Source: Mollicutes bacterium (GTDB lineage: Bacteria > Bacillota_I > Bacilli_A > RF39 > UBA660). From it: DNA of 40,095 bases. The stretch's first letter is position 1; every line of letters begins with the position of its first letter. The translations under genes and the position numbers were made by a program. Shown here piece after piece: positions 1-40,095 of this stretch. The DNA lies in assembly GCA_012520055.1 (NCBI GenBank), contig JAAYPA010000029.1, positions 1-40,095 of the forward strand, read 5' to 3'. The notes under the pieces are model-generated. The model searched no databases. It worked only from the letters and a program-made list of their open reading frames with translations, and was not told the DNA's origin.

Positions 1-566
1 ATTGACAGTTTGACAGTTATATTTTGATTAGTAATTGTTTCATCTTCCCAAATATCTTCATTATCGGCATTTAACCACATTCTAAAATTATAGACATGAC
101 TTTCATTTCCATCAAAAGCACTGGTTACTAAAGTATAATTATTTAAATAACCTACTAAGCCTTGTTGAGGTTCTTCAATAAGCTCACTTAATTTTTTGTT
201 TTTATTATAAGTTAAACCATCTAAATCTATTTTTACATATTCACGGTTAGTGATTGTCGTAGTATTTACTACTGACATAACAATTTGATATTTGACATAT
301 GTGTTACAGTTATTACGCACAGTAAAACGATATGGCTGTGTTTCCATAGCCTCTACATATGTTAAAGGATAAGCATTATGTAAATTTAATGTATTTGAGT
401 TTCCTACTATTGAAACATCAACACAATCTAAAGTACTTACGATATTAGTACTGTTTTGTGTTGTTACTTTTCTGAATATGGCATATGTCCCACCCATTAT
501 CACAGTAGCTAAAATAATTATTCCGATAATCATATATACTCTGTATTTAAAAGATAAAGTTCTCAT
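1..566 (-). CDS. SipW-cognate signal peptide, TasA/camelysin-like protein (3' end runs off the window)
   Basis: Not in the ORF track; translated by hand from ATG at 566 (RBS AAGGAGAA): MRTLSFKYRVYMIIGIIILATVIMGGTYAIFRK...AYPLT...YRFTVRNNC...ESHVYNFRMWL..., open to the window edge. GGTYA-IF matches the SipW-class cleavage motif. Confidence 0.8.
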   Translation of the reverse strand, partial: MRTLSFKYRVYMIIGIIILATVIMGGTYAIFRKVTTQNSTNIVSTLDCVDVSIVGNSNTLNLHNAYPLTYVEAMETQPYRFTVRNNCNTYVKYQIVMSVVNTTTITNREYVKIDLDGLTYNKNKKLSELIEEPQQGLVGYLNNYTLVTSAFDGNESHVYNFRMWLNADNEDIWEDETITNQNITVKLS

Positions 567-3054: not shown

Positions 3055-3372
3055 CTATACTTGAATTAGCTTTAACGCTACTAATTCATTTTTCACTATT
3101 TTAAATTCACTATTTAGAGTTAGATTGGTATTACATATTAAGCCATCACCTTGATTTAATTTAGCAGCTTCTATTCCCTTTCTTAATGATTCTCTACCAT
3201 AATTATCAATTATTGTAACAGCGCCTAAATTGTAAACAATATATTTAATTCCTTGTTTGCTAATTACCGGAATTAAATAATTATCTAAACTTCTAACGGT
3301 ATCTTTAGTTAAATTACCTTTTAATCTAATAAACAAAACACCTTTACGAAATTCCATATTGATTTTTAACAT
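3055..3372 (-). CDS. spoIIAA: Anti-sigma F factor antagonist (STAS domain), degenerate phosphorylation site
   Basis: GVLFIRLKGNL...IVYNLGAVTIIDNYG STAS pattern; upstream of sigF. Confidence 0.8.
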   Translation of the reverse strand: MLKINMEFRKGVLFIRLKGNLTKDTVRSLDNYLIPVISKQGIKYIVYNLGAVTIIDNYGRESLRKGIEAAKLNQGDGLICNTNLTLNSEFKIVKNELVALKLIQV

Positions 3373-24794: not shown

Positions 24795-24819
24795 AAAAAA
24801 AAGACATTAAAAATGTCTT
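24795..24819 (-). terminator. Intrinsic terminator
   Basis: AAGACATT-aaa-AATGTCTT with U-tract on the minus strand. Confidence 0.55.
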
Positions 24820-26344
24820 ATATTGCTTTAAATGGATTGTTCATACTACCATCACCTGTTACTCTTACATTGCCTTTAATAGATAATACAGGTCTAACAC
24901 CAAGACTGCCGGAAACGCCATTACTAGATATAGAACCATAATCATTTAGATAAATAACAGTCGGATTTGGATAATAAAAATTATAGGGTGAAAAAGTCCA
25001 AAAATTTTGATTTGTTGTTAAATAAATTGATGTTCCAACTTGAGCTTCTGCTAATCCACCAAATATTAATTCCGAATTTGTAACAAGCCCAATCGGATAC
25101 TCTAAATTACCATTACCGACTTCCGTATCTTCTTTAGTAAAACGATCATTTTTATCTGGACATTTTAAAGAAGGTAATTTAGAAGATAAATTATAATATT
25201 CTCCATAATTTGAATTATAAACTCCATAACCTTGTCCGCTTAATAAAGTACGGTTATTACAAAATAAATTATCTGCTACTTGTGATTCATATGATTTACC
25301 TAAAATACTATTTTGATACCATGTTTCTAAATATGTTTTGATATTTGAATTTGTTTCATTCAATATCACTTCTTCTCTTGAGCTCGAAGATACTCCTGAT
25401 GTTCCACCATACATATATCCAATATATTTATTATCTCCTCCAGCTGAATTCCAAGTTGATGTACCAATCTGTGTATTTAGACCTGTACTATTTACATAAC
25501 CCATTATATTGAATTCTTCTTCTGTTCCATTATATAAAAGTCTTATGGATCCATCTCCATTAATACGGATAATTTTCCACTGAAAACCTCCCCAAATAAC
25601 ATTGTTATTTAATAAATCTTTTTGTCCTCGATAATAATATGAAGTTCCATATTCATCTAAACTGGCATATAAACCTGTATCAGTTGAAGTAGCTATTTGA
25701 GTAAAATTAGGATTTCCTTTTGATTCAATGGTAGCTGCTCCACCACCTTGAGCCAAGATAGCATCATGAAGTGATATATTTTGAGGTGCAGTATAATTTT
25801 CAATTAATACATAAGCACCAAAGGTTTTCTCTTGATCAATATTTTGATTATATTCTTGGTTAGGAAAATATATTTCTAATCTATAAGTGTGAATTTTATT
25901 ACCTCCGGTTGGCACATCAAATGTAGCTGTACCTAGTTCAATAGTTTTTGTTCCCGTACCAATATTTGTCATATCAATATTAGGAGCAACAGTACCATTA
26001 TTATCAGTATTAGTACCATTAAGCTTATATTTTAATGCTTCTTCACTAAAATCATTTGCTTCTACTACTAAACTTAATTTATATCCCATTGGTATTTCCG
26101 TATTATTATTTCCAGTTACCGTGAATGTCTTAATAGCAGCTGGACTATTATCCGGAATAATATTAGCTATATTGATGTTCGGTCCACCATCATAAGTAAT
26201 ATTCATTCTACCACCTGTGACCGTAATTGTATCAGTTGTTTCTCCACCGGTAAATTGCGCTGTAAAATATGCAAATGATATACCAATCGTAACTATTAAT
26301 GTTACCACTATAAACGATAATAGTAGCGCTGTGTTTTTCTTCAT
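24818..26344 (-). CDS. SipW-cognate TasA-like subunit fused to a C-terminal lectin-like (GVRP) head
   Basis: GISFA-YFT signal; N-domain aligns with 33928-34530; C-domain has YYYRG, WKIIRINGDGSIRL, FCNNR, FWTFSP...GVRPV...GDGS..NPF. Confidence 0.8.
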   Translation of the reverse strand: MKKNTALLLSFIVVTLIVTIGISFAYFTAQFTGGETTDTITVTGGRMNITYDGGPNINIANIIPDNSPAAIKTFTVTGNNNTEIPMGYKLSLVVEANDFSEEALKYKLNGTNTDNNGTVAPNIDMTNIGTGTKTIELGTATFDVPTGGNKIHTYRLEIYFPNQEYNQNIDQEKTFGAYVLIENYTAPQNISLHDAILAQGGGAATIESKGNPNFTQIATSTDTGLYASLDEYGTSYYYRGQKDLLNNNVIWGGFQWKIIRINGDGSIRLLYNGTEEEFNIMGYVNSTGLNTQIGTSTWNSAGGDNKYIGYMYGGTSGVSSSSREEVILNETNSNIKTYLETWYQNSILGKSYESQVADNLFCNNRTLLSGQGYGVYNSNYGEYYNLSSKLPSLKCPDKNDRFTKEDTEVGNGNLEYPIGLVTNSELIFGGLAEAQVGTSIYLTTNQNFWTFSPYNFYYPNPTVIYLNDYGSISSNGVSGSLGVRPVLSIKGNVRVTGDGSMNNPFKAI

Positions 26345-26434
26345 ATTCTGACCTCTATTCTATTAAAATTATATCTATATCAATGATAGAAATTTGTCAT
26401 AAAAAAACTTTATTAAGTATTTTTTTATTAAGTA

Positions 26435-27184
26435 CTATAAAAGCTTAAATGGGTTAGCATTACTACCATCACCAGTTACCGTAATATCTCCTCTTATAGA
26501 TATTACTGGTCTTACTCCATAAATATTATTCGTAGCAACATAAGTAAAATACCCAGTTAAATGAACAGCAAATGCATTAATTTCGTTATGATCATTCATA
26601 TAAAATGGTGTTAATAACCAGAAAGGACTTTCTAAAAATAGATAATTAGAATTATTATTAGTGCTAAGAAGAAGGCCTACCATAGACGCTTCGTCAGCCG
26701 TTAGAAGTCCTACCGAATAAGTCAAAGCTCTATTTCCAATCTTTATATCACTTTTTGTAAAACGATCATTTTTTAGACCACATTTTAAGGTTGGATTTTT
26801 ATATGAATATAAACGGTGATATTCGGCATAAGTAGTATATCTATCTAATCTTCCATAACCTGGTCCGGTAGGAGTTCCTCCTACTTCACTACTTAATTGT
26901 CTGTCATTACAAAATAAATTATCAACGATTAGATTTTCCAGATCTTTACCAGAAAAATTAGTTTGATACCAACTATCTAAAAAGGATTTAATAGTTGAAG
27001 ATGTTTCATTTATTACTGCACCTTCTCTTGATGTTGAAGCAGAGCCAAAGGCTCCTCCGTACATGTATCCTAAATATTTAGCATCATTTATATTGGTACT
27101 AAAAGCCGATGTTCCTATATTATAACCAGAATATGATGTACAGTTTTCATTGCTACAAGTTCCTCCATATATTAGTCTTATGGA
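26435..27184 (-). pseudogene. Orphaned C-terminal head of a disrupted tandem paralog
   Basis: Frame is open from SIRLIYGG at 27184 through GVRPV..NPFKLL; no signal peptide and no convincing start. Confidence 0.7.
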
Positions 27185-27741
27185 TCAAGATTGCTTTCAG
27201 TTTTAATAAAAGCATTTAAGTTTTTTTCTTGATCAATATTTTGGTTATACTCTTGATTAGGAAAATAGATTTCTAATCGATATGTATGGGCTTTATCTCC
27301 TTCTGTTGGTACATCAAATGTACCTGTTCCTAATTCAATTGTTTTTGCTCCCGTACCAATATTTGTCATATCAATATTAGGAGCAACAGTACCATTATTA
27401 TCAATATTAGTACTAATAAGCTTATACTTTATTGCTTCTTCACTAAAATCATTGTATTCTACTACTAAACTTATTTTGTAACCCATTTCAATAACAGTAT
27501 TATTATTCCCAGTAACAGTAAATGTCTTAATAGCAGCTGGATTATTATCTGGAATAATATTACTTATATTGATGTCTGCACCACCATTATAAACGATATT
27601 CATTCTACCACCGGTTACAGTAATAGTATCTGTTTCTTCACCACCTGTAAACTGAGCTGTAAAATAGGCATAAGATATGCCTATTGTAATTAACAAAACT
27701 ACTATTATACAGCTCACAAAAAGTATTGTGCTACCTTTCAC
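27178..27741 (-). CDS. SipW-cognate TasA-like subunit (N-terminal part of the disrupted paralog)
   Basis: GISYA-YFT signal; closely similar to the N-domain of 24818-26344; stops right after the deletion junction. Confidence 0.75.
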   Translation of the reverse strand: MKGSTILFVSCIIVVLLITIGISYAYFTAQFTGGEETDTITVTGGRMNIVYNGGADINISNIIPDNNPAAIKTFTVTGNNNTVIEMGYKISLVVEYNDFSEEAIKYKLISTNIDNNGTVAPNIDMTNIGTGAKTIELGTGTFDVPTEGDKAHTYRLEIYFPNQEYNQNIDQEKNLNAFIKTESNLDP

Positions 27742-27843
27742 TAAGCTTCACCTATTTTCAATTATAGGTTACTTTTCTTTTTTAAATCAATGGAAAAATT
27801 TGGCAACTTTTAGCTCATTTTGTCAAAAAAAAGATAATAATTT

Positions 27844-28152
27844 TTAATTACTATCTTTTTGCTTATCTTCTTCTGTTTCAGGTTCGGTTTCTTCTACTTC
27901 TGGAACCATTTTTTTAATATCTTCTTCTGTTTCTTCTACCGGTAGTTCTGCTTCCTTTGAAACTTCTTCATTAATTTCTGTTTCTGCCTCCGGCTCACCT
28001 ATTTCCTCTGTACTCTCTAAAGTTGTTTCTTTTATTTGTTCATTTCTTTTCTTATTTTTGATTGTATCAATTATGTAACCTATTAAAGCAAATATTAAAA
28101 ATAATAATACAATCATAATAATTAAATAATGATCTTTAATAAAGTCTAGCAT
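27844..28152 (-). CDS. Small membrane-anchored acidic protein
   Basis: One TM (FALIGYIID) and a Glu-rich tail; RBS GGAGG. Confidence 0.75.
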   Translation of the reverse strand: MLDFIKDHYLIIMIVLLFLIFALIGYIIDTIKNKKRNEQIKETTLESTEEIGEPEAETEINEEVSKEAELPVEETEEDIKKMVPEVEETEPETEEDKQKDSN

Positions 28153-28209
28153 ATATTCCTCCCTTTCTATCTTACCTTAACTAATTATATGAACTAAAGG
28201 TTTATTTCA

Positions 28210-29283
28210 TTAATTAATTGTTAATTTTTTAATTTTAGGTTGGATTTGAATAAAAGTATTACCGTCATTTACTATTAATTTTTCACCATTTTCAAATTTA
28301 TAGATCGTTTGAGCTGAACGTGATGTTTTACTCCAAGTAATAGGAACAGCTTTTCCTTCAGAAATATAATAACCTTTTCCAGAACCAATATTATCTATAC
28401 CTTGACGCCCTTTATTTTCAGCATCATTAAGATTGTAGTTGGCAACATCATAAACAATAATGTTTTTAAAGGTATATTGATTACCAGTTACATAATCTTT
28501 ATGAATTTTGCCATTAACAAATCTTTTATAAACTTTGGCTTCTTCATCATATTCATAAGAGGAAGTTATTGTACTAGAGTATTCTACAGAAACATTTTTA
28601 GCATCAATAACATTTTCTTTTGTACTAAAATCAACAGGTTCAACACTATATTTTAATAAATAATCTTTATTTCTTTCAGTTCTTTTATTTCCAATACCAT
28701 TAGCTAATTTTTCAGTACTGGTAAATAACGTATGTTCACTTGATACTTTTAAAGTTTTATCTCGCCATCCGGTTTTGGTATTATTAACTTCAATACGATC
28801 TATTCCTAAACGGGAAAAATCACTGCCTGCTTGAGGAGATTGACCATTATGAGCTAAAAAAGCATCATTTTCCAAAACATAGTCTAAATAATAATGGCGG
28901 ACACTTCTTACTGAACCTATTCTTTCAACGTTTACATCTTGAAATAAAGCTAAGTAACGGGTAATTCCAGCTTCAACTATTATTTCGTATATGATAAAAG
29001 CATCTTGTAATCCACTTTGTAGTGACCTTGCAGTGCCAATATTATTGATCATTACTGCATATGGTCTGGTTTTTGATTCCAGATTAACAATTTGTACCTT
29101 TTTCTCTTCTATAATTTTAGTTGTTGTTGTTTCCTGATTTGGATTTTTTTCTTCTGTTTTATTAAAAATATTTAAATAGTAATAAATACCAAACCCAATA
29201 ATTATAAGCACTGCTACAATACCTATAATAATATTTTCCAGTTTGATTTTCTTAACTTTTTTTTCTTTTACTTCTGGTTCCAT
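28210..29283 (-). CDS. DUF3048 (YerB-like) membrane-anchored protein
   Basis: RPYAVMINN, QSGL..A..IYE..VEAGITR, IGSVRSVR, GNTFIQ. Confidence 0.88.
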   Translation of the reverse strand: MEPEVKEKKVKKIKLENIIIGIVAVLIIIGFGIYYYLNIFNKTEEKNPNQETTTTKIIEEKKVQIVNLESKTRPYAVMINNIGTARSLQSGLQDAFIIYEIIVEAGITRYLALFQDVNVERIGSVRSVRHYYLDYVLENDAFLAHNGQSPQAGSDFSRLGIDRIEVNNTKTGWRDKTLKVSSEHTLFTSTEKLANGIGNKRTERNKDYLLKYSVEPVDFSTKENVIDAKNVSVEYSSTITSSYEYDEEAKVYKRFVNGKIHKDYVTGNQYTFKNIIVYDVANYNLNDAENKGRQGIDNIGSGKGYYISEGKAVPITWSKTSRSAQTIYKFENGEKLIVNDGNTFIQIQPKIKKLTIN

Positions 29284-29399
29284 TCTTGTCCTTCTTTCTC
29301 AAATATCATATCATATTACCAGATAATTTAAAATAAATAATTGTATTCATTAACTTATTTTGATATACTTTAGATATGACGGAGGCTTGATTTTTTACT

Positions 29400-30491
29400 A
29401 TGAATATTGATAAAAGAATCTTAAAAATGATTATAATGGTAGTTGGAGGTTTTGTATTATTTTTTATAATAATTGCCTTAATTAGTAGTTGTAATAAAAA
29501 TAAAAAATATACCTTTGAAGAACTGGAACAAAAGTTAATAACTTTAGCTCAAAATTATTATGAACGTAATGAAGCTTCTTTACCGGATATTGGAAAAGAA
29601 ACATCACTTACTACAGGATATTTTATTTCTAATGGATATTTTAAAGATATAACTTTAACGACCGGAGAAACATGTACAGGAGAAATAATAGTAGCCAATA
29701 ACAATAATAATTATTTATATACTCCGAAGTTAACTTGTGGTAACAAAAAATCAGTATTTTTTGCTGATAAATTAATAGAAGATAATAATGTTGTAACTAC
29801 CGGTGAAGGATTATATCATATAGGTAATGAATATATCTATCGTGGTGAAAAAGTTAAAAATTATATATCAATAAATGAAAAATTATGGAGAATTATTAAG
29901 ATAAACAGTGATAAAACAATAAGAATAATTGAAGTTGAACGAAGTGGTTCATCAACTACTTGGGATAATAGATATAATTTAGAAAAAAAATCTAATTCAG
30001 GAATTAATGATTTTATTACTAATAATATTAATAGTCGAATTAAAAACAAATTAGAAGATTTATATAACAATGAAAATAAATTTGGCCCGGATATTAAGCC
30101 ATACTTTGTACCGCAAAATTTATGTATCGGTAAAAGAAGTGAAAATGATACTGTTAATGATGGCTCAATTGAATGCAGTCAAGTACTAGAAAATCAAATG
30201 TTTGGATTAATTCAAGTAAATGAATATTTCTTTGCTAGCTTAGATGAAAACTGCATTAACATAGCCAGTAGAAGTTGTACAAATTATAATTATCTTGCTA
30301 AATTAGATGCATCTACATGGACAATAACTGCTGATAAAGATAGTAGTTATAAAGCTTATCGATTAGATTATGATATTTCTTTAGTAAATGCATCTAGTAC
30401 CGGTGGTATATCGATCGTAGCTCACTTAAGTAAAAATCTTTTATTTGTAAGTGGTACCGGTACTGAGGAAGATCCATATATTATAAAATAG
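29400..30491 (+). CDS. Membrane/lipid-anchored protein: pilin-like domain plus divergent lectin-like head
   Basis: Hydrophobic N-terminus ending ISSC; YIYRG..NY...LWRIIKINSDKTIRII and terminal GTGTEEDPY shared with 24818-26344. Confidence 0.75.
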   Translation: MNIDKRILKMIIMVVGGFVLFFIIIALISSCNKNKKYTFEELEQKLITLAQNYYERNEASLPDIGKETSLTTGYFISNGYFKDITLTTGETCTGEIIVANNNNNYLYTPKLTCGNKKSVFFADKLIEDNNVVTTGEGLYHIGNEYIYRGEKVKNYISINEKLWRIIKINSDKTIRIIEVERSGSSTTWDNRYNLEKKSNSGINDFITNNINSRIKNKLEDLYNNENKFGPDIKPYFVPQNLCIGKRSENDTVNDGSIECSQVLENQMFGLIQVNEYFFASLDENCINIASRSCTNYNYLAKLDASTWTITADKDSSYKAYRLDYDISLVNASSTGGISIVAHLSKNLLFVSGTGTEEDPYIIK

Positions 30492-30512
30492 TTCAAAAAT
30501 GAACTATTTTTT
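30485..30512. terminator. Bidirectional intrinsic terminator
   Basis: AAAATAGTTCA-aaaa-TGAACTATTTT between convergent genes. Confidence 0.65.
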
Positions 30513-30536
30513 ATTGTAAAAAAAAGATAACCACGG

Positions 30537-32009
30537 TTATCTTATAATTTCATATTCCCAAGTAACTTGATAAATAATACCATATATACATAGATTTTTT
30601 CCTTCACCAAAGTTAAAAGTTGTTTTACATTGATTACTTACGTATCCGGCCCATTCTACTCCACGATCATAAATATCATATAAATTAGATTTACTTATTA
30701 ATACTTTAGAAAAAGCAGCCAGATTATCAGGAATACCATTAAAGTAATCACCATTTGTGCTTTGATAATCAAATGTTGACATATGATATTTATAGAAATT
30801 ATTTATATCTGTATTTGTTGATAAAGCTCTTGTATATTGAAGTTTTTTAATACGGATATTAATATAATTATCATGAGCAAGAGCAGCAGGGATTTTTAAA
30901 GTATGCTTAACTATGGGGATACTAATTTGAGACCCATAACCAGCACTATAAACATCAGTAGTATAAGTTTCGGTATATATATATTTGGCTTTTAATGTTA
31001 TATTACTATAAATTCTTGTATTAAAATCAAATAGTTTATCACCATCATACCAACCATAAAAAGTTGCTCCGCTTTTTGTTGGATTTCCTGGTTTAGTTAC
31101 ATAATTACCATAATTAACTGATACTGATGAGTAATATGAACCTCCATTACTATCAAAAGTTACAGTATATTGTGGAGTAGCTTTTTTAGTAGTTGTTTTG
31201 GTTGTGGTTTTAGTGGTAGTTTTCTTAGTAGTTGTTTTAGTGGTAGTTTGATTTTTATTAACCCATTTCGCCATTAATACTATATTACTGTTAACCGGGT
31301 TATTAAAGTTATATTCTTTATCTCCTAAATACCAACCGATAAATATATATCCGGATTTTTTTGGATTAGTCGGTCTAGTAGCAGTCTTACCAATTGGAAT
31401 ATATTGAGTTTGGATTTTTGTACCACCGTTGGAATTAAATATAACCGATACATTAGTTGCCGCTTTAGTTGTTTTAACTACTTTAATAGTTTCGGTTTGA
31501 GTAGATTTAGAAGTATTTTGATTATTATTAGATTTAGAAGTTTGAACATTTTTCTTAGTAGTCGTTGTTGTCGTTGTAGTAGTACCTACAATATCATCCG
31601 TTTTTTCTTTATTTATATAAACATATGATTTATCGGTTTCTTCTCCACAAATCAAGAATATTTCCATTTCATAGCTAGAATCTTTAGATGTTATTTGAAC
31701 ATAACTGTTTTCTTTATCACAAGAATTACCCTTAACGTCTTTCAGTTCATTTACAGCACCGATATTAATTAAATCTAATAATTTTACTTTTTTACTATCT
31801 TTAGGTAATTTATCCCCTTTAAAATAATCGTTACTTTTTGTTCTTAAAGTGGACATATTATTTTGAAATTCTATACTTTGTTCTTGATAGGCTTTTTTAT
31901 TTTCGATTGGAAGTAATTTTATTATTAAAACAACGGCTACAATTAAAAAAGCCAACTTTAATAAAAATCCTTTCCAATCGAATTCTATTTTATTATTATC
32001 TTCATACAT
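30537..32009 (-). CDS. Surface protein with two InlB B-repeats (Flg_new) and Thr/Lys-rich linkers
   Basis: Two VxFxSNGG...PTKSGxxFxGWY...YxF...LxAK repeats; N-terminal TM. Confidence 0.85.
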   Translation of the reverse strand: MYEDNNKIEFDWKGFLLKLAFLIVAVVLIIKLLPIENKKAYQEQSIEFQNNMSTLRTKSNDYFKGDKLPKDSKKVKLLDLINIGAVNELKDVKGNSCDKENSYVQITSKDSSYEMEIFLICGEETDKSYVYINKEKTDDIVGTTTTTTTTTKKNVQTSKSNNNQNTSKSTQTETIKVVKTTKAATNVSVIFNSNGGTKIQTQYIPIGKTATRPTNPKKSGYIFIGWYLGDKEYNFNNPVNSNIVLMAKWVNKNQTTTKTTTKKTTTKTTTKTTTKKATPQYTVTFDSNGGSYYSSVSVNYGNYVTKPGNPTKSGATFYGWYDGDKLFDFNTRIYSNITLKAKYIYTETYTTDVYSAGYGSQISIPIVKHTLKIPAALAHDNYINIRIKKLQYTRALSTNTDINNFYKYHMSTFDYQSTNGDYFNGIPDNLAAFSKVLISKSNLYDIYDRGVEWAGYVSNQCKTTFNFGEGKNLCIYGIIYQVTWEYEIIR

Positions 32010-32174
32010 AAAATGTTCACACCCCTGCTCTTTTATGGGCTTTATAATAGCATTTTTTCCTTATAAAGTCAATTATATCTACTTCATATATTACTTCATA
32101 TATAAAAATATATGAAGATTAACAAATAATAATAAATATGAACACTCTTAAAAAAGAAAATAACATATTTTATT

Positions 32175-32300
32175 ATGAAAGAGGTGAGCAGTATAATAGG
32201 TAACTGTGTATTTAGATTATTTCGTTGTCCGGTTCGCTGTTGTTGTTGCTGCTGTAGTCAAGTTATAAATTTTACCAGAAACAATAATTCAATAGACTAA
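32175..32300 (+). CDS. Putative 41-aa cysteine-rich peptide (CCCCCC)
   Basis: Hand-translated MKEVSSIIGNCVFRLFRCPVRCCCCCCSQVINFTRNNNSID*; followed directly by a terminator. Confidence 0.5.
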   Translation: MKEVSSIIGNCVFRLFRCPVRCCCCCCSQVINFTRNNNSID

Positions 32301-32304
32301 CAAA

Positions 32305-32333
32305 AAAACAATATCGATTTTCGATATTGTTTT
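32305..32333. terminator. Bidirectional intrinsic terminator
   Basis: AAAACAATATCGA-ttt-TCGATATTGTTTT. Confidence 0.7.
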
Positions 32334-32841
32334 AATATTCGGTTATTTCGATATTTGCATCAAAGTATTTACCTAGAATTTGGTCGTAAACTACCCCTTC
32401 TTTGACTTTATAATCAATATCATATTCATAGTTTGCGAATTTTTTTAAAGAAATGTTTTCGATCTTAAAAACATAATAGTCTCTATTTTCAGTTAAATAT
32501 AAAGAGCTTAAGTCAAAAGACTTATCGTTAATCAAAATTAGTAAATTTTGATAATCCAAAGTTGATAATTTGGCATATTTCAATAATATTTTCCCTCCTT
32601 TTTGAGTATTAGAACGATTATAAACTATAAAATTACTTGTTTTAAAATTTGAGTCTTCGGTAATAATTGAAGCTTCACTCTTATTAACAGAATATATTTC
32701 AAGTCCCGGTTCCAAACCAGCAATACTGTCATCTAAATTAATAGTAGAAGCATTTATATTTTTCCAATAAGGAAAACTAAAAGCCGAAATAATACAAATT
32801 ACAAAAATCTCAAAAAATAGCTTAAATATTTGAAAACGCAT
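32332..32841 (-). CDS. Secreted/anchored protein downstream of sipW, possibly a degenerate TasA-like accessory subunit
   Basis: Start MRFQ at 32841 (GGGGG RBS); N-terminal hydrophobic segment ending SFPYW; beta-rich body. Confidence 0.6.
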   Translation of the reverse strand: MRFQIFKLFFEIFVICIISAFSFPYWKNINASTINLDDSIAGLEPGLEIYSVNKSEASIITEDSNFKTSNFIVYNRSNTQKGGKILLKYAKLSTLDYQNLLILINDKSFDLSSLYLTENRDYYVFKIENISLKKFANYEYDIDYKVKEGVVYDQILGKYFDANIEITEY

Positions 32842-32896
32842 ATTTCCCCCAAAATAAAAATTCTCTATAAAAGAGAATTTTGTATTACATATCCTA

Positions 32897-33796
32897 TCAT
32901 AACTCGTTAGGATTGTCAAAATTGTTATTATCCTCATCATTAGGAAAAATTTTTAGTGGCTCATTTGATTCTGGTTGTTCATTATTATTAACAGAGGTTT
33001 CATTTACTTTACTTTCATCAATATTTTGAATAGGTGGTGTAATATTTTTTTCTTCTTGTATTACTTCATTATTGCGAACTTCAGTATGATTCCTAGCAAA
33101 TAATTGAGGATTTTTCTTTATTTTCTCCAATGTTTCTATTATTTTTTTATTTTCTTCTTTTTCAACTACTTGTGTGATATCTTTACCAGTAATTTTTTCA
33201 GCTTTACCGGTTACTCCCAATACTTTGAATACTTTTAAAATATCATATATAATAATTCCTAAAGCAGGTAAAAGAACGATTAATAACCAACCCAACTTAG
33301 TAGCCAGCAAAAATTGTATTTGACCTAATTTCGGTATTTTTAAAATAGTTTTACCCAGTATATCTCTTTGTTGTACCGGAGAACTATCAGCACTCAAGTT
33401 ATAATCACCTTTAGTAATAAATTCTCTGGAACCATCATTTTTAATTTTTACATCTATTATACGATGAGTAATAGTCATATTTTCAATCAAAGAAGATTGT
33501 GATTTATAAGTTATTACATCTCCAATTTTTAGAGTTGTAAAATCATCTATTCGTACATTTACTATAATATCTGATCTATTTATAGCAGGAGCCATACTAC
33601 CACTGACAATTGTATATAAGGATAACTTAGGTGGCAAACCGGTTTTCTTGCTGACTATTTTAGCAGAAATAAAATAGTATATTAAAAAAGCCCCAATTAA
33701 TAGTAGGATGACAATAAATGCGGTTGAAATAAGTTTTGCAACATATTCTAAAGACTTTTTTAGGCTTTTTGTTTCATCTTTAGGGCTCTCAGGCAT
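32897..33796 (-). CDS. sipW: Signal peptidase I, SipW (ER/archaeal type)
   Basis: IVSGSMAP (Ser), GDVITY, ITHRI (His), TKGDYN..D; adjacent to TasA-like genes. Confidence 0.9.
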   Translation of the reverse strand: MPESPKDETKSLKKSLEYVAKLISTAFIVILLLIGAFLIYYFISAKIVSKKTGLPPKLSLYTIVSGSMAPAINRSDIIVNVRIDDFTTLKIGDVITYKSQSSLIENMTITHRIIDVKIKNDGSREFITKGDYNLSADSSPVQQRDILGKTILKIPKLGQIQFLLATKLGWLLIVLLPALGIIIYDILKVFKVLGVTGKAEKITGKDITQVVEKEENKKIIETLEKIKKNPQLFARNHTEVRNNEVIQEEKNITPPIQNIDESKVNETSVNNNEQPESNEPLKIFPNDEDNNNFDNPNEL

Positions 33797-33825
33797 AATA
33801 CCACCTATTCTATTCTTCTTTTTAT

Positions 33826-33854
33826 ATTATAAGTGTTTTCATATAAAAACGCAA
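33826..33854 (-). promoter_or_regulatory. sigmaA-type promoter of sipW
   Basis: TTGCGT-N17-TATAAT. Confidence 0.5.
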
Positions 33855-33876
33855 GAATTAGAATAATTTTTCAAAT

Positions 33877-33899
33877 AAAAAAGGATGAACTATCATCCT
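33877..33899 (-). terminator. Terminator between the TasA-like pair and sipW
   Basis: AGGATGA-acta-TCATCCT with U-tract on the minus strand. Confidence 0.6.
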
Positions 33900-33927
33900 A
33901 ATTTTTTAATATTAATTTCTTTATACT

Positions 33928-34530
33928 TTAAGGATTGACGGTAGTAGTTGTTGTATAAACTTCGCCTACTCTTACATCAACATATCCGGCTAAAGATTTT
34001 CCTTTATCTACATCTTGATTTTCGCCGGTTTCTGGGAAAAATATATCTAGGACATAAGTATGTCTTGAGCCACTAATAACTCCGGCAAAAAAACCTGATC
34101 CTAATTCAATTGTCTTTGCTCCAGTTCCTAAATCCGTCATTTCTATTGATTGAACAATTTGACCATTTCCATCAGTATTATCGGAAGTTAGAGAATACTT
34201 TAAAGCATCTACTGAAAAATTATTTGATTGAATTACTAAAGCTAAAGAATATGGCATAACGGCCGTAGTACTGTTTGTACCTGTTATTGTAAAGTCCTTA
34301 TGTATAGCTGGAGCATCCACTTCCGGTTGAATTGAACCTGCAATAGATGGACCATGCGGATCAGCATAGGCTATAGTAAGTTTACCAGCACCAACCGTAA
34401 TAGTTGTTCCTTCTTCCGTTCCGGTTATATTGGCAGTAAAGTATGCAAACGTTGCACCGATTACCGCTACTAATAAAGTGGCAACACCAATTACCGTAAG
34501 TAATAATGTATTTGTCCTATTTCCACTCAT
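33928..34530 (-). CDS. SipW-cognate TasA/camelysin-like fibre subunit
   Basis: IGATFA-YFTA signal; single about 170-aa beta domain ending FFPETGENQD. Confidence 0.85.
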   Translation of the reverse strand: MSGNRTNTLLLTVIGVATLLVAVIGATFAYFTANITGTEEGTTITVGAGKLTIAYADPHGPSIAGSIQPEVDAPAIHKDFTITGTNSTTAVMPYSLALVIQSNNFSVDALKYSLTSDNTDGNGQIVQSIEMTDLGTGAKTIELGSGFFAGVISGSRHTYVLDIFFPETGENQDVDKGKSLAGYVDVRVGEVYTTTTTVNP

Positions 34531-34557
34531 TTGAAATTTCCTCCTTTATTTATAAAA

Positions 34558-35166
34558 TTATTGAACTGTAGTTGTATGTTCCATTTCCCCACTAGTTATA
34601 ACATCTATTGAAATACGAGCCAATAAACTTTTTTCTTGGCTAGCATTTTGTGGTTGTCCAGTTTCAGGAAAATATATATCTAAATAATAAATATGTGATT
34701 GTTCACCATTAGTCGGTCCATTAAATATTCCTGTACCTAAATCTGCTGTTACACCTGTCGCAGGAACGTTTGCTAAAGAAACAGCATTTAGTTTTGTACC
34801 ATTAGATGATGAAGTAGGATCAATGGTAAGAGAATATTTTAAGTGGCCTGGATAAAAAGTATTTTCAGTAACTACCAAACCTACTGTATAATATATATTA
34901 GCATCTCCTCCAGAAGTACCTTTAATAGTAAACTTTTTTTGTCCCCAAGATTCCTCTCTCGGCCAAATATTTGGTTCTACTATTACTGAGTCACTTCCTT
35001 CATATACCGTACCAATATTAGCTGCAGTAACAGTAAATGCTTGTTGTTGCTCATTGGTTGATAAAATTGCTGTGAAGTATGCAAAAGTTGCACCAATTAC
35101 AGCTATAAGTAAAGTTGCTATTCCAATTATAGTTAATAATATTGTGTTCCCTTTCCCGTCGTTCAT
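34558..35166 (-). CDS. SipW-cognate TasA/camelysin-like fibre subunit
   Basis: IGATFA-YFTA signal; YFPETGQPQN; paralog of 33928-34530. Confidence 0.85.
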   Translation of the reverse strand: MNDGKGNTILLTIIGIATLLIAVIGATFAYFTAILSTNEQQQAFTVTAANIGTVYEGSDSVIVEPNIWPREESWGQKKFTIKGTSGGDANIYYTVGLVVTENTFYPGHLKYSLTIDPTSSSNGTKLNAVSLANVPATGVTADLGTGIFNGPTNGEQSHIYYLDIYFPETGQPQNASQEKSLLARISIDVITSGEMEHTTTVQ

Positions 35167-35472
35167 TGATATCCTCCTTTACTATATTAATAATAGCATT
35201 TAGAAATAATAAAATCAATCTATTTTGCGTTATTTTGCATTTTTTTAACTGATGATTTATTATTCTCTACTAAGTATTATAAGGCTATTTTATTAATTTA
35301 TACTTGAGTAATAAAATTTTATTAATAATATTACTCATTAAAGATATTTCATGGATATGTATCAGGTATAGGATAATAAAATATAAACGCTCTTTTGTAT
35401 AGATTTACTCTCCTACCTTAGCATTCTTATTATACGTTAATCTCCATTTAATGATTATCTTCATAGATAATC

Positions 35473-36348
35473 TTAATCATTAGCCTGCCATCTTCCGTAA
35501 ATACCGCAAGGTAATACTAAATTATTATTTTGAATTGGTAAACCTACTTCACCTGCTTCAACGGTGCCATTAGGATATACCGGTAGGATAGTCGTTTTTA
35601 AAATATTTTCGAGTACTGTACTAGAAATACCAGTAGTATAAGAATTTACTGAAAAGAATAGGGGGTTATCACTTAATATTGTTAAACAAGCTTTAATAAG
35701 ATGATAAATGTTGTCTTCAAATTTCCACACTTCTCCGTTAGGCCCTCTTCCATAAGAAGGAGGGTCCATAATTATTGCATCATATTTATGACCTCGTCTT
35801 GATTCTCTTTCAACAAATTTTAAACAATCATCAACAATAAATCTGATGCGATTATTTTCTAAATTAGATAATTTCATATTTTCTTTAGCCCATTCGACCA
35901 TTCCCTTAGCCGCATCTACATGCACCACTTCAACTGCTCCGGCATAAGAACAAGCTATAGTAGCAGCTCCGGTATAAGCAAATAAATTTAATACTTTAAT
36001 ATCTCGATTACTTTTTTTTATTTTATCAATCATAAAATCCCAATTAACTGCTTGTTCAGGAAATAAACCTGTATGTTTAAAGTTAGTAGGTGAAACTTTA
36101 AATGATAATTCTTTATAAGAAACTGTCCAGTATTCCGGTAATTTCTTTTTAAATTCCCAGTGACCTCCCCCTTTATCACTACGATAATAATGACCATTGG
36201 GATTATTCCATAAATCACTATCAGTATTAACTGGCCAAATAGCTTGAGGATCTGGTCTTCTTAATATTACTCCATTCCAATATTCTAATTTTTCCCCATT
36301 ACCAGCATCTAGGCATATATAATCTTTCCAATCATTACTTAGTTTCAT
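35473..36348 (-). CDS. Class I SAM-dependent methyltransferase (RlmI/RlmK-like)
   Basis: HTGLFPEQ, LNLFAYTG, IMDPPSYG; start MKLSNDW at 36348. Confidence 0.88.
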   Translation of the reverse strand: MKLSNDWKDYICLDAGNGEKLEYWNGVILRRPDPQAIWPVNTDSDLWNNPNGHYYRSDKGGGHWEFKKKLPEYWTVSYKELSFKVSPTNFKHTGLFPEQAVNWDFMIDKIKKSNRDIKVLNLFAYTGAATIACSYAGAVEVVHVDAAKGMVEWAKENMKLSNLENNRIRFIVDDCLKFVERESRRGHKYDAIIMDPPSYGRGPNGEVWKFEDNIYHLIKACLTILSDNPLFFSVNSYTTGISSTVLENILKTTILPVYPNGTVEAGEVGLPIQNNNLVLPCGIYGRWQAND

Positions 36349-36400
36349 GTAATCACGTCCTAATAATATTATAACAGAAAAATATATTAAAAAAACAAAT

Positions 36401-36425
36401 AAAAAAAGAGTTGACAAACTCTTTT
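36401..36425 (-). terminator. Intrinsic terminator after yebC
   Basis: AAAAGAGTT-gaca-AACTCTTTT. Confidence 0.6.
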
Positions 36426-37143
36426 AATCCCTTTTAATGTTATGATAAATGGCTGCTACATCGTCTATTTCATCAAGAAGATTATACAATCTTTCAAAAT
36501 GTTCTAAATCTTCACCGGTTAAAATTATTTCATCTTTAGCAAAGTAACCTATTTCATCATAAGTATACTCAATATTAGGAATAATACTTTCTAAAACATT
36601 TTTGATCTTATTAATATCGGCTGGTTTAGCTGAAATAGTGATTTCTCCATTTTCTGATTCAAAATCAACTAAGTCAATTCCTTCATTAAGTATAGCCTCA
36701 AAGATTTCCTCTTCTTTATCACTTTTGAAAGATATAACAGCTAAATAATCATAATTATAAGCAACACTGTTAGTAACTCCCAATGATTTATTAACTTTAT
36801 TAAATGCTGCTCTTATATATCCAACTGTTCTATTTACGTTATCAGTTAAACATTTAATAATAAAAGTACTGGCACCAGGACCAAAACCTTCATAAATTAC
36901 CTCTTGATATTCATCAGCATTTACGCCTTTAGCCTTATCGATAGCTCTACTAATAATATCATTCGGTACTTGATTTTTTCTGGCTTTTTCAATAATTCTT
37001 TTTAAAGAAATATTAGAATCCGGGTCAGGTGATCCCTTCTTAGCTGCTAAATAAATTTCTTTAAAAAATGTTGTGTATATTTTCCCTTTGGCAGCCCCAG
37101 TTTTTTGGATACTAGCTGCTCTAACTGAATATGCTCTTCCCAT
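36424..37143 (-). CDS. yebC: YebC/PmpR family protein
   Basis: MGRA..., YEGFGPG, TDNVNRT, DDV..IYHN. Confidence 0.92.
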   Translation of the reverse strand: MGRAYSVRAASIQKTGAAKGKIYTTFFKEIYLAAKKGSPDPDSNISLKRIIEKARKNQVPNDIISRAIDKAKGVNADEYQEVIYEGFGPGASTFIIKCLTDNVNRTVGYIRAAFNKVNKSLGVTNSVAYNYDYLAVISFKSDKEEEIFEAILNEGIDLVDFESENGEITISAKPADINKIKNVLESIIPNIEYTYDEIGYFAKDEIILTGEDLEHFERLYNLLDEIDDVAAIYHNIKRD

Positions 37144-37186
37144 ATCTAATTTCCTTTCTTTTCTGACTTACCTATTTTAACAAATA

Positions 37187-38236
37187 TTAAAATAATTTAC
37201 AATTATTTATAAACTCTTGATATAAAGAATCTTTAACTAAATTATTTTTACGCAACTTTTTGATTTCTTTTTTAATATTATATATTTTATATTCTTCATA
37301 ATTATTTTTTTGAAGTAAATATTCTATCGTTTTAATTACCATTATTTTTGGATCATTAGTATGAAATTTTCTTTCTAAACGTGAAATTATTTCCGAATTT
37401 ATTTTTCGAATTAATCTTTTATAATACCTACTTGGCTTAGAATAAAAATAATAATCATAACCATCTAAATTTTTTACTACTTTTAAAGTATCATAATATC
37501 CCATTTTAATATGATCTATATTGGAATCTTTATCAAAAATAATCATTGATCCTAAACTTTTTTTAGGTGCTATTTCAATAACTTCAGTTTCTTCGTATAA
37601 TTTTGGTTTCTTTCTACCTATTCCTTTAATTCTGATAGCATATATTTTTTTGCATCCTTGTCTTTCCAAAAAAGGAACAGGAAGAATACTATAAAAACCA
37701 CCATCTAAATAATAATTATCATCAATAATTTTTTTAAAAGAAAAAATTGGCAGATAACAAGAAGCTAAAATATATTCAGAAAGTTTTCCTTCTGGTATAT
37801 CATCGATAGTTAGTTCTATTGGAGTAAATCCCTTTACTTTAACTGTTACCAAACCGTATTTAATTTTACTATTACGGACTTTTTTTTCATTAATATTTTC
37901 TTTTATGGACTTTAATAATAAAGTTGTATCAATACCTTTATTTTTTAAAATTAATTTCAAATTTGTTAAACCTAATTTAAAATCTTCCAAATGAATATTT
38001 TTAGATTTTATTTTAGATACTAAATCACTGTTAATACCTAAAATTTCCGTAGTGGTATTAATCCATAAATCAATCATTTTATCCAAATCCCCTTGGACTA
38101 TTAATGCGGCATTCAAAGCTCCGATTGAAGTTCCCGCAATCATTTTTGGTTTAATACCACATTCTTTAAGAGCTAAGTAAGCACCGGCTTGGTAAGCGCC
38201 TCTTGCTCCCCCACCTTCAAGAGCAATTCCTATCAT
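37187..38236 (-). CDS. Patatin-like phospholipase
   Basis: GGGARG, GTSIG, DGG motifs. Confidence 0.92.
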   Translation of the reverse strand: MIGIALEGGGARGAYQAGAYLALKECGIKPKMIAGTSIGALNAALIVQGDLDKMIDLWINTTTEILGINSDLVSKIKSKNIHLEDFKLGLTNLKLILKNKGIDTTLLLKSIKENINEKKVRNSKIKYGLVTVKVKGFTPIELTIDDIPEGKLSEYILASCYLPIFSFKKIIDDNYYLDGGFYSILPVPFLERQGCKKIYAIRIKGIGRKKPKLYEETEVIEIAPKKSLGSMIIFDKDSNIDHIKMGYYDTLKVVKNLDGYDYYFYSKPSRYYKRLIRKINSEIISRLERKFHTNDPKIMVIKTIEYLLQKNNYEEYKIYNIKKEIKKLRKNNLVKDSLYQEFINNCKLF

Positions 38237-38956
38237 TTATATCACCAACCCTAATAACATAATCAAAATACCCGTTAAAATACCATAAATAGCATACTTA
38301 TTAAAGTTTTCCTTTAATTCATTAATTAATTCAAAACAAATAATATAAAATATCATACCAATAGTAATACTTAATAAAGTACCTAAGAAGAAATCTGAAA
38401 GCATATCTTTAAAAATAAAAACTAATATACCTCCTATTAAAGTAGATAATGTTAATAATCCTAAATTTATCCACAGCTTCTTTTTATTATCTTTAAGTAA
38501 AGCTGTTATTTTAATACCAAAAGGGATATTATGTAAAGCTACTCCTAAAGCATAAATAATTCCTGATTTAAAGCTTGATTCAGCAATTGCACCAATACCA
38601 ATACCTTCTACAATATTATGAATAATAATCGCAATTGATGTCATAACCCCAATATGAGTTAAATGATCATGATCATCTTTTTCAGTATGATCATGATGAT
38701 GAGGAACTAATTTTTCAAGTATTAATAATAACGCTATACCAACTAAAATTCCTCCCCCAATGGCTAAAAATTTATAATCAGGAAAAAGTTCAAAACATTC
38801 CGGTAAAATATCTAAAATTACTAATAATATTAATACGACAAAACTTATTCCCAAGCTAAAACTTATTAAATTCTTTTTATTGTTTACAAATAAAGAAATT
38901 AAGGCTCCAGCTAAAAAAAACAAACCCACTAACAAAGTAATTAATAAGCTTTGCAC
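38237..38956 (-). CDS. ZIP family metal transporter with His-rich loop
   Basis: PHHHDH..DHDH, IHNIVEG, LHNIP; GTG start at 38956 after GGTGA (ATG at 38974 is an alternative). Confidence 0.88.
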   Translation of the reverse strand: MQSLLITLLVGLFFLAGALISLFVNNKKNLISFSLGISFVVLILLVILDILPECFELFPDYKFLAIGGGILVGIALLLILEKLVPHHHDHTEKDDHDHLTHIGVMTSIAIIIHNIVEGIGIGAIAESSFKSGIIYALGVALHNIPFGIKITALLKDNKKKLWINLGLLTLSTLIGGILVFIFKDMLSDFFLGTLLSITIGMIFYIICFELINELKENFNKYAIYGILTGILIMLLGLVI

Positions 38957-38989
38957 ATATATCACCACTAACATTTTAAACCACTAATC

Positions 38990-39014
38990 AAAAAAAAGCT
39001 AGTAGAACTAGCTT
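38990..39014 (-). terminator. Intrinsic terminator
   Basis: AAGCTAGT-aga-ACTAGCTT with U-tract on the minus strand. Confidence 0.6.
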
Positions 39015-39025
39015 AAGAAATTTTC

Positions 39026-40095
39026 TTATTCTGTTACTCGGTAAGGATTCGTTAGTGTTCCTTCTCCGGTTACGATTATATCAGCTTTTAAATTAATGAC
39101 CGGACGTAAACTATCATATTCTACTGTCCTTGTAACACTAGTACCAGAGATGTTAGCATGATAATCTATAGCCCATATAGTTGCTTCTTTATCAATATCA
39201 AAAAATGCATAAGGGGACATTGTATAATATGGGAAAAATACAAATAAATAGTTGTTAACATTTTGAGTCCCATAAATTAAACCGGCTATCATTGCCTCAT
39301 CAATAGTAATTAATCCAACCGGATATGTTAATGCTCCGTTTCCTTTAATTGTGTCTATGGTAGTAAAACGGTCATTTTTTAAGGCACATTTTAAAGTAGG
39401 GTTTTTCTCGGTGTATATTCTAAATCTGGGAGCATAACTAGAGTAAAATTGCCCATAACCCAGTGATTCAATTTCATCACCGCTAATTTCTTCAGCAAAT
39501 TGACGATCATTACAAAAAATATTATCAGCTATTTTATTTTCAAATAGTTGACCAGATATATTTTCTTCATACCACAAATCTAATTGCACTTTAGCATCAC
39601 TATCTGTTTGATTATAATTTGCAGCTGCCGGTATAGAACCATTTCTTTGGGTAGAAGCAACTCCTTTTGGACCACCATACATATAGCCAACATATTTGTT
39701 ATCATTAAAAACACTTGAATATGTGTAAAATCCTATTACAGTTTCAGGCCCTATGTCATTCATAGTACCATTTTGATCAAAATCTTCTTCAGTACCATTG
39801 TATATTATTCTAATTGATCCATCTCCATTAATACGTAAGATTTTCCATTGAAATCCACCAAATATTAGATTGTTTTTTAGGATATTTTTATTACCTCGAT
39901 AATAATAGCTAGTTCCATATTCATCTTCCATAGCATAAATTCCGGTGTCGCTTTCCGTAGATATCGATGAAAAATTAGGATTTCCTTTTGATATTATTGC
40001 CGAAGTACCATCTTCTTGCCATAATATTGCATTTCTAAGTGTTAAAGGTACCGGATTATATCTCAAATTAGCTGTCATCGTAATCTTGGCACTAA
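39026..40095 (-). CDS. Third paralog of the lectin-like head family (5' end outside the window)
   Basis: Frame is open to the window edge (SAKITMTANL...); KGNPNF, EYGTSYYYRG, FQWKILRINGDGSIRI, FCNDR, SLRPV..GEGTLTNPY. Confidence 0.82.
   Translation of the reverse strand, partial: SAKITMTANLRYNPVPLTLRNAILWQEDGTSAIISKGNPNFSSISTESDTGIYAMEDEYGTSYYYRGNKNILKNNLIFGGFQWKILRINGDGSIRIIYNGTEEDFDQNGTMNDIGPETVIGFYTYSSVFNDNKYVGYMYGGPKGVASTQRNGSIPAAANYNQTDSDAKVQLDLWYEENISGQLFENKIADNIFCNDRQFAEEISGDEIESLGYGQFYSSYAPRFRIYTEKNPTLKCALKNDRFTTIDTIKGNGALTYPVGLITIDEAMIAGLIYGTQNVNNYLFVFFPYYTMSPYAFFDIDKEATIWAIDYHANISGTSVTRTVEYDSLRPVINLKADIIVTGEGTLTNPYRVTE

Follow-up and report, generated by a model that had tools for sequence, protein, structure and literature searches.

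Why should a bacterium with a genome of about a megabase keep a signal peptidase gene beside two short subunit genes, and scatter longer copies of those subunits, with a large and variable extra domain, around its chromosome? The question is raised by a 40,095-nt contig of a Mollicutes bacterium (JAAYPA010000029.1; the whole of it is called the window here), which is contig C98 of a 1.19-Mb metagenome-assembled genome (MAG; G000) of 138 contigs and ~27% G+C that is 72% complete. Near-identical DNA occurs in anaerobic-digester and biogas metagenomes from 13 studies. The window carries sipW, the gene of a SipW-type signal peptidase, next to two genes for headless subunits made of a signal and a predicted beta-sandwich (the N-domain), and, dispersed from them, paralogs in which the same N-domain precedes a second domain, the head. 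Every feature that the original prediction, made from the DNA letters, had placed here was found in position on the minus strand. A signal-peptidase operon together with scattered head-bearing copies of its subunits looks like a toolkit for sticky fibres.

The answer to which we lean, with some reserve, is that the window holds the core operon of a SipW-processed surface filament of the TasA/BsaA kind, which head-bearing paralogs would join as exchangeable adhesins. The subunits would be exported by Sec, and SipW would cut after ...ATFA, exposing the conserved YFTA... N-terminus. This N-terminus would serve as the donor strand that enters the beta-sandwich of the following subunit, the arrangement known from TasA, BsaA and archaeal filaments of the TasA superfamily. 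The filament would be built by the two headless subunits, with the small membrane protein encoded after sipW as an accessory. Paralogs with the same signal and N-domain and with one or two heads would join it, at the tip or along its length; of these the window contains, whole or in part, 24818-26344, the paralogs that end at 39026 and start at 566, and a disrupted one (27741-26435). The ligand surface of these adhesins would be a hypervariable stretch near the C-terminus of the head (head residues ~266-303).

The sipW operon

As had been predicted, sipW adjoins two headless subunits of ~200 aa on the minus strand (32897-33796 for sipW), and both subunits carry IGATFAYFTA within a signal that reads ...LLVAVIGATFA/YFTA... 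(the slash marks the predicted cleavage site). In subunit B cleavage is predicted after A29, which would leave a mature N-terminus YFTANITG.... Among 52 aligned sequences A29 and F31 never vary, and conservation is at least 90% at Y30, T32 and A33. On TIGR04088 (cognate_SipW) subunit A passes the cut-off (20.2 against 19 bits), 27178-27741 stays below it at 13.1 bits, and no other window paralog appears among the matches. Genome-wide, a regular expression for the signal matches 9 of 2,485 ORFs, and all nine belong to this family, above chance. Among the homologs of subunit B (369 at E<=1e-3), none is named and none has a Pfam domain.

The peptidase passes TIGR02228 (98.5 bits, cut-off 51.85) and stays below the cut-off of the Bacillus SipW equivalog family NF046067 (84.9 against 190 bits). 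By these profile scores it is of SipW type yet not an equivalog of B. subtilis SipW. The genome encodes three bacterial-type and four SipW-type signal peptidases, and the window sipW should therefore not be the housekeeping enzyme. The other sipW loci of the genome have their own, different candidate substrates, which argues that the window SipW is dedicated to the N-domain family. At least three further SipW-type peptidase genes lie at C94:11900-20745 and C69:5351-7896, one of them fused into a 702-aa protein, and the candidate signals at these loci read ...TLAWFAYS, ...GITYSVFT, ...TSYALLS and ...GAYALFAT.

The subunit genes stand directly upstream of a dedicated signal peptidase I gene, which is the co-location feature of the TasA superfamily. 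One to five tandem headless N-domain genes are found beside a SipW-type peptidase in 8 of the 16 loci examined from other genera, the patatin-yebC flank being kept in one of them, and the locus of another relative has nine in tandem. The operon of headless subunits and sipW is the conserved core of the system. Several relatives likewise encode a small membrane protein after sipW; in two of them it is weakly similar to 32332-32940 (E 1.2e-5 and 4e-3), for which no Pfam family was matched. The idea that 32332-32940 is itself an N-domain-like protein was rejected (hhalign probability 0.2).

The RNA evidence consists of assembled contigs from three RNA-library runs, and the libraries may include DNA. 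Contigs from two studies cover both headless genes, one of them 1,256 nt long (33916-35171), and contig ends at 33916, 33959 and 33964 lie near the hairpin at 33882-33899. This is a weak hint of a bicistronic headless-subunit transcript that ends at the hairpin. The three runs yielded no contig over 24818-26344 or most of sipW, which is no sign of silence.

Is a filament needed to account for these genes? The proteins could instead be monomeric surface adhesins, each attached to the cell through an uncleaved signal-anchor or through binding to the wall. The N-domain would then serve as a stalk or spacer, the headless copies would be truncation products or act as decoys or spacers, and SipW would do no more than remove signals. 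The hydrophobic segment (positions 7-28) is at least 90% conserved in the 52 sequences, which fits a retained membrane helix, and polymerisation is a step that we infer. However, the first mature residues are conserved as well and are disordered in the monomer model, as a donor strand might be, and tandem headless arrays are kept beside sipW across genera, so the decoy reading is hard to sustain. Overall, monomeric adhesins, the strongest rival to the filament, seem rather unlikely, though they return with some of the evidence below.

Heads, paralogs and retroelements

The original prediction described the N-domain of 24818-26344 as fused to a ~320-aa head that recurs at 39026-40095 and 26435-27184, and the alignments bear this out, the second copy being truncated. 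The N-domain of 24818-26344 is 78% identical to 27178-27741, 47% to 33928-34530, 36% to 34558-35166 and 26% to 3-566. Its head (residues 186-508) matches 39026-40093 at E 1.8e-88 and 26435-27064 at E 1.4e-43, and the head of 39026-40095 (P0213) is 45% identical to it. Dispersed substrates had been proposed at 24818-26344, 27178-27741 and 1-566; all three do carry the family N-domain, but 27178-27741 and 26435-27184 are a single disrupted paralog, and 1-566 is cut by the contig end. Compared with 26344-24818, the stretch 27741-26435 has a 238-bp deletion at nucleotide 556, with a frameshift and the loss of ~79 head codons. An independent DNA-run contig (26237-27286) bridges the deletion junction with no gaps, and the deletion is therefore not an assembly slip. 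The truncated 187-aa product of 27178-27741 could act as a headless subunit; as a demonstrable truncation product it also suits monomeric adhesins. The gene with the head at 39026-40095 runs off the contig and so has lost its 5' part. The gene starting at 566 continues on contig C99, where the start of C99_26535_28661, a gene with two tandem heads, has the same C-terminal peptide. A further point for monomeric adhesins is that a head-related domain is also found without an N-domain, in the lipoprotein-like 29400-30491 (lipobox read by eye), which aligns with the head profile at a hhalign probability of 95.9% (E 6.2e-9, 217 columns).

What kind of domain is the head? The guess of the original prediction was a DUF6273 or C-type-lectin-like fold, and the fold searches agree with it. 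The head model (pLDDT 96.9) has one clear match, the DUF6273 N-terminal domain of 9qa6 (Z 13.3, rmsd 3.4, 194 residues, 18% identity; Foldseek E 2.3e-4). Lower matches include the Bacteroides fimbrial protein 4eps (Z 6.6), the C-terminal domain of Legionella Lcl (Z 6.0), TvpA (Z 4.8), many C-type lectin domains (Z 4-4.7) and Mtd (Z 3.9). On the DUF6273 family PF19789 (gathering score 23.5 bits) the 508-aa protein and 26435-27064 score below the cut-off (20.9 and 14.1 bits), 39026-40093 gives no match, and the paralog fragment C42_2_592 passes with 25.9 bits. The fold of the head model is of DUF6273 type, with a C-type-lectin-like core. It has two invariant cysteines, and its entropy is highest in blocks 261-300 (2.15-2.80 bits, 55 homologs). 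A profile search of the genome ORFs found the N-domain in 20 and the head in 16 (contig-end fragments included), and this number of heads, with their entropy peak, speaks for the variable repertoire that had been proposed. In P0195, from another organism, the head follows a type IV pilin N-terminus; its presence on this other filament scaffold counts against monomeric adhesins.

The variable stretch of the head coincides with the target of a diversity-generating retroelement (DGR). Elsewhere in the genome, contig C28 holds a DGR cassette (reverse transcriptase (RT), 66.8 bits; bAvd-like protein, E 1.5e-6) with a template repeat (TR), whose sole imperfect copy is a variable repeat (VR) in a head fragment on contig C42. 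The two repeats differ at 20 positions, 19 of which are TR adenines, and the VR maps to head residues 266-303, within the naturally most variable stretch. The DGR of this genome thus appears to mutate the most variable head surface of one paralog. BLAST with the C28 cassette matches only C42, C83, C2 and C28 itself and nothing in the window, the heads of which are not TR targets. A second RT with bAvd (59.8 bits) and a 99-bp repeat pair is found at C61:243-2456; this pair was rejected as a TR and VR because its 15 mismatches show no specificity for adenines, whichever strand is read.

Relatives show the same coupling on two kinds of scaffold. The DGR target of one (G469, L131) has a SipW-type signal and an N-domain, with 18 of 22 mismatches at TR adenines, and another (G479, L132) has a TR/VR pair in a head protein, where all mismatches (13/13) are adenine-specific. 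In two further relatives (G508, L133, and G454, L136) the targets begin with a type IV pilin N-terminus (GFTLIELL), with 11/11 and 8/8 adenine-specific mismatches; the G508 target has head matches, and none was found in the G454 target. Locus L137 (G468) is also among the relatives' DGR-target loci. In G465 an RT adjoins an N-domain-plus-head gene, and no TR/VR pair was found between the two, so the link there is one of adjacency alone.

DGRs are often phage-borne, and gut-phage DUF6273 proteins are the best matches of the head in a viral structure library (E 8.6e-7 to 1e-4). Could the heads then be phage-derived receptor-binding modules or prophage remnants? Against this, the genes carry Sec/SipW-type signals, sit among housekeeping genes and reach 16-26 copies per genome in several genera, and no phage structural genes were seen adjoining family genes in the window. 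We regard a phage origin as highly improbable.

The heads are one set of modules in a much larger family. Of 61 genomes sampled from the taxonomic family to which this one belongs, 34 encode the N-domain; the highest count is 26 matches, in a genome of 1.2 Mb. The N-domain profile matches 14,906 of 1.84 billion cluster representatives at E<=1e-3 (6,910 at E<=1e-10). The named relatives are all called 'hypothetical protein' and come from MAGs of uncultured Bacilli, 'Tenericutes' or Erysipelotrichaceae, from guts and digesters. Among the matches listed, the N-domain is at the N-terminus in 150 of 150. A Pfam scan of long matches found DUF285 in 10 of 42, PF12389 in 4 of 42, and LRR_5, RCC1-like and Flg_new domains in 1 of 42 each. 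To judge from these architectures, the N-domain is probably a general carrier of varied C-terminal modules. The papers found on DUF6273, TasA-like/SipW systems and DGRs do not describe the family, although supplementary cluster tables could include members.

Some members depart from the common design. On contig C46 (1082-2971) the N-domain is followed by DUF285/BspA-like repeats that replace the lectin-like head. A 433-aa protein at C12:6014-7315 has a long N-terminal extension, a membrane segment ending AGFAYLSV and Asp-rich, calcium-binding-like repeats (DIDGDG...), and carries the N-domain C-terminally; it may be an anchor or a base subunit. At C69:17503-18519 a complete head (338 aa) has only ~12 residues before it and no signal peptide, and may be a decayed paralog or a mis-called start. 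Several close relatives, at loci L050-L053 and others, bear the database name 'uncultured Muribaculaceae bacterium'; since the matches of their genes are to low-GC Bacilli MAGs, the submitters' labels look unreliable.

The N-domain and the TasA superfamily

The AF2 model of subunit B (pLDDT 78.7) shows a beta-sandwich at residues 41-188 and disorder at residues 30-39. Is this sandwich TasA-like, as the original prediction held? The support comes through relatives. A homolog 39% identical to the 508-aa protein (P0217) scores 37.6 bits on PF12389 (Peptidase_M73, TasA/camelysin; gathering score 22.5 bits) with residues 4-82 over profile positions 4-79, and 4 of 42 long relatives match this family at E<=0.001 (best E 9e-06). 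Of 59 family members, 18 match TIGR04088 at E<=0.01, two match the BsaA family of NCBIfam (best E 9.7e-9) and two match TasA; BsaA and TasA both polymerise, which is a further point against monomeric adhesins. The protein-atlas neighbours belong to clusters named DUF6273/Camelysin and DUF285/Camelysin, in the latter with PF12389 on the aligned part. No window protein matches TIGR04090 at E<=0.1. A PF12389 search for genuine TasA/CalY sequences gave only N-terminal partial matches over 201 genomes of the class, in 8 of them, and none at E<=1e-12 over 401 genomes of the phylum.

Direct comparison by fold and by sequence profile gives a weaker link. The TasA fibre 8aur_A aligns with Z 6.9 and rmsd 4.0 over 140 residues, the longest alignment among the top rows, where it ranks 8th and 3rd. 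By Foldseek against the PDB, the N-domain model finds generic jelly-roll and carbohydrate-binding-module matches (TM 0.2-0.35), with CanA (9hdi) at rank 9 (E 8.3e-4) and TasA absent from the top 50. Among PDB sequences, the sole match of a profile from a close alignment (A2) is 3rwx (E 1.2e-3). A homotrimer model of the mature headless subunit (30-200, A2) scored 0.00 in both runs, with no controls, and is used neither way. We read the N-domain, whose direct link to TasA is only weakly supported, as a divergent branch of the TasA/BsaA superfamily, outside PF12389 as defined. A camelysin-type metalloprotease was considered and rejected: no HExxH motif is visible, and H157 is the only invariant His (52-sequence alignment, by eye).

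Several results weigh against this assignment and against the filament as a whole. No window protein reaches the PF12389 cut-off: among 11 window proteins the sole match is 3-566 (14.2 bits), the best match genome-wide has 13.9 bits, and none of 52 close relatives matches at E<=1. Even in relatives, the PF12389 matches are confined to the signal peptide and the initial strands (profile positions 3-79). The 8aur match is tied with unrelated beta-sandwiches (Z 6.9-7.6), ~7 being a common level for the tool, and TasA 5of1, although colinear end to end with a broader alignment (A4), is not significant (E=1). Since the head genes are dispersed and away from sipW, co-assembly rests only on the shared N-domain, and cleavage and polymerisation are steps that we infer. 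Of proteins with the nearest head fold, the only one characterised is ThomasA, an enzyme that is monomeric and anchored by sortase, according to the accessible part of its report (PMC12402451). Gene counts are approximate because the MAG is 72% complete, in 138 contigs, with breaks inside family genes.

The original prediction placed the system at 24818-40095, but it is not one contiguous unit: the head genes are scattered among housekeeping genes, with cdaA, ybbR, DUF3048, methyltransferase, yebC, patatin and ZIP genes between family members (features in Table 1). The Flg_new-repeat protein at 30537-32009 is an uncertain member of the fibre system, listed for its position. Between ybbR and gpmI lies a 148-aa type IV pilin-like protein (22012-22458, minus strand; KGFTLVEV) that scores 20.1 bits on N_methyl, just under the cut-off of 21.2, and T2SSE-type ATPase genes occur in the same genome (contigs C109 and C5). 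Genes resembling spoVAC, spoVAD and spoVAE, a sigma-F-like factor and a SpoIIAA-like anti-anti-sigma factor (640-3372, minus strand, by eye) form another group in the window; such sporulation-type genes stand out in a family with genomes of only 0.8-1.3 Mb.

Table 1. Features of the putative filament system in the window, and of the retroelement elsewhere in the genome
Feature	Position	Strand	Basis
Headless subunit A, 202 aa; SipW-type signal (IGATFA/YFTA) and beta-sandwich N-domain	34558..35166	-	TIGR04088 20.2 bits; N-domain HMM E 1.9e-62
Headless subunit B, 200 aa; same family as A	33928..34530	-	369 homologs at E<=1e-3
Terminator-like hairpin with T-run between subunit B and sipW	33882..33899	-	hairpin prediction
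SipW/archaeal-ER-type signal peptidase I, 299 aa; charged C-terminal extension of ~110 aa	32897..33796	-	TIGR02228 98.5 bits
Small membrane protein downstream of sipW, 168 aa from a probable start at 32838; putative accessory or anchor	32332..32940	-	weak homologs
Second terminator-like hairpin, 3' of small membrane protein	32333-32305	-	hairpin prediction
Intact head-bearing paralog, 508 aa; signal and N-domain (1-185), DUF6273-like head (186-508)	24818..26344	-	alignments, fold model
N-domain ORF of disrupted paralog, 187 aa; stop created by frameshift	27178..27741	-	78% identity
Head remnant of disrupted paralog; out of frame, ~79 first head codons gone, no own signal	26435..27184	-	alignment
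Complete head; 5' part of gene beyond contig end	39026..40095	-	head HMM E 2.3e-142, full domain
5' part of divergent paralog; signal GGTYA/IFRK and N-domain	1..566	-	N-domain HMM E 4.6e-5
363-aa protein with lipoprotein-like signal (...ISSC); reduced head-related domain, no N-domain	29400..30491	+	hhalign
Membrane-anchored protein with Thr-rich linkers, 490 aa; two Flg_new repeats; downstream of sipW unit	30537..32009	-	PF09479 98 bits
DGR cassette: RT, bAvd-like gene, MutS_I-like small ORF, 113-bp TR	contig C28:12114-14217, outside window		TR C28:14105-14217
Variable repeat in 3' part of head fragment	contig C42:413-525, outside window		sole imperfect TR copy

Known filaments and the place of the family

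How does this locus compare with characterised systems, as far as the accessible parts of their reports describe them? The nearest in outline is the tapA-sipW-tasA operon of B. subtilis with its TasA fibre (8AUR, 5OF1), where subunit genes also stand beside a dedicated SipW-type peptidase. Common to both are the SipW-cognate signal (A/xF...), a beta-sandwich of similar size, a free N-terminus that could be a donor strand and independence from sortase. Unlike TasA, the window proteins have marginal sequence similarity to it (E=1 to 5of1; PF12389 below cut-off), no TapA homolog was seen here, two to nine tandem subunit genes replace one, and many paralogs carry large C-terminal heads, which TasA lacks. 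In C. perfringens, the sipW-bsaA-bsaB-bsaC operon encodes two TasA-like subunits and a vWA-domain protein, BsaA assembles into polymers through donor-strand exchange, and when sipW is co-expressed, a protein fused to the C-terminus of BsaA is secreted and exposed at the surface (PMC11580942), a finding that favours the filament with built-in heads. The Bsa system resembles the window in its combination of sipW, two subunits and a protein with a binding-type domain, and has a functional tie to type IV pilus genes; the heads here are DUF6273 and not vWA, and are many and dispersed, whereas the vWA protein is a single operon member.

The haloarchaeal tafi locus encodes the major subunit TafA, the adapter TafE, the two-domain tip adhesin TafC, the anchor TafF and the signal peptidase TafD (PMC11821415). 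It is likewise a filament locus of the TasA superfamily with its own signal peptidase I and follows the same logic of a headless shaft and a head-bearing subunit, TafC joining a pilin-like domain to a lectin-type (laminin G-like) domain. It differs in being archaeal and Tat-exported, with one adhesin gene per locus and another head fold, and its report, in the accessible part, describes neither a paralog repertoire nor a DGR. Tip and minor components are also predicted for AbpX loci, according to the accessible part of the source (bioRxiv 10.64898/2026.01.04.697558). The claim of the original prediction that no characterised TasA system has this architecture was therefore overstated, with TafC and the bsaC operon as precedents.

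These systems also bear on whether the proteins are assembled at the cell surface at all. The headless subunits might form a loose biofilm matrix and the heads might be released as lectins, agglutinins or enzyme-like proteins that act on cells or polymers in the digester. TasA is reportedly, in one study, a matrix protein. The organism lives in dense anaerobic-digester communities, and no LPXTG motif with a hydrophobic tail or other wall anchor is visible at the C-termini (...NPFKAI, ...TTTTVNP, ...HTTTVQ; by reading), a result that also counts against a sortase pilus; four sortases are encoded elsewhere in the genome. BsaA, too, is described as a matrix protein, but its oligomers are reported as membrane-anchored and surface-exposed in the accessible part of the same source (PMC11580942). 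A secreted matrix overlaps with the surface filament because the same assembly chemistry is implied. We take released matrix proteins to be improbable here; to our knowledge, the DGR-diversified C-type-lectin-fold proteins known so far are all surface-displayed binders.

For the head, the best structural match is the IgA peptidase ThomasA of Thomasclavelia ramosa, from a related gut Firmicute lineage, in which a DUF6273 domain precedes the M64 protease and is dispensable for catalysis (PDB 9QA6; PMC12402451). There the domain is part of a sortase-anchored monomer, so that the nearest solved head supports monomeric adhesins, and the accessible part of the report assigns it no role, so ThomasA is uninformative on the ligand of the head. 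Mtd, TvpA and the Bacteroides type V pilus adhesins, which are diversified by DGRs (bioRxiv 10.1101/2024.11.15.621889, as far as accessible), have a C-type-lectin-like core with a C-terminal variable region, and in one paralog here a DGR hits exactly that region. The relatives' DGR targets on filament-type N-terminal modules are a further likeness to the type V pilus adhesins. In contrast, TvpA and Mtd give low fold scores (Z 4.8 and 3.9), the window heads are unmatched by the TR, and a TasA-like subunit or a type IV pilin takes the place of a type V pilus or a lipoprotein as the scaffold. The grafting of a binding module onto a filament subunit has another parallel. PilB and PilC of Streptococcus sanguinis are said to be modular type IV pilins of this sort, and the same principle appears in P0195, where the head stands on a pilin N-terminus, and in the L133 target; the L136 target has the pilin N-terminus with no head match. 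The polymerisation module and assembly machinery of PilB and PilC are other than those of the window proteins.

New here are the joining of DUF6273 heads to a TasA-like subunit, the extent of the repertoire in genomes this small, the tandem heads, the occurrence of the same head on type IV pilins and the coupling to DGRs. More broadly, and only tentatively, it is possible that reduced-genome Bacilli of guts and digesters make adhesive filaments of changeable specificity, with a DUF6273-type head on two scaffolds that are unrelated, a SipW-processed TasA-like subunit and type IV pilins, with 10-25 paralogs per ~1-Mb genome and with the binding surface of some of these DGR-hypermutated.

TasA-type fibres are known mostly as plain biofilm scaffolds, and a branch with exchangeable heads, some of them DGR-diversified, would widen the role of this class of filament. 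Thousands of proteins now labelled 'hypothetical' would gain a function as well (the N-domain has matches in ~14,900 cluster representatives). The hosts are uncultured, have ~1-Mb genomes of which several percent of the coding capacity is spent on the N-domain/head family, and may depend on attaching to partners or particles. The heads themselves are natural, compact and hypervariable binding scaffolds. If the proposal is true, the TasA-like fibre would be a polyvalent display rack for evolving binding sites, and Gram-positive bacteria would have their own equivalent of the type V pili that DGRs diversify in Bacteroides.

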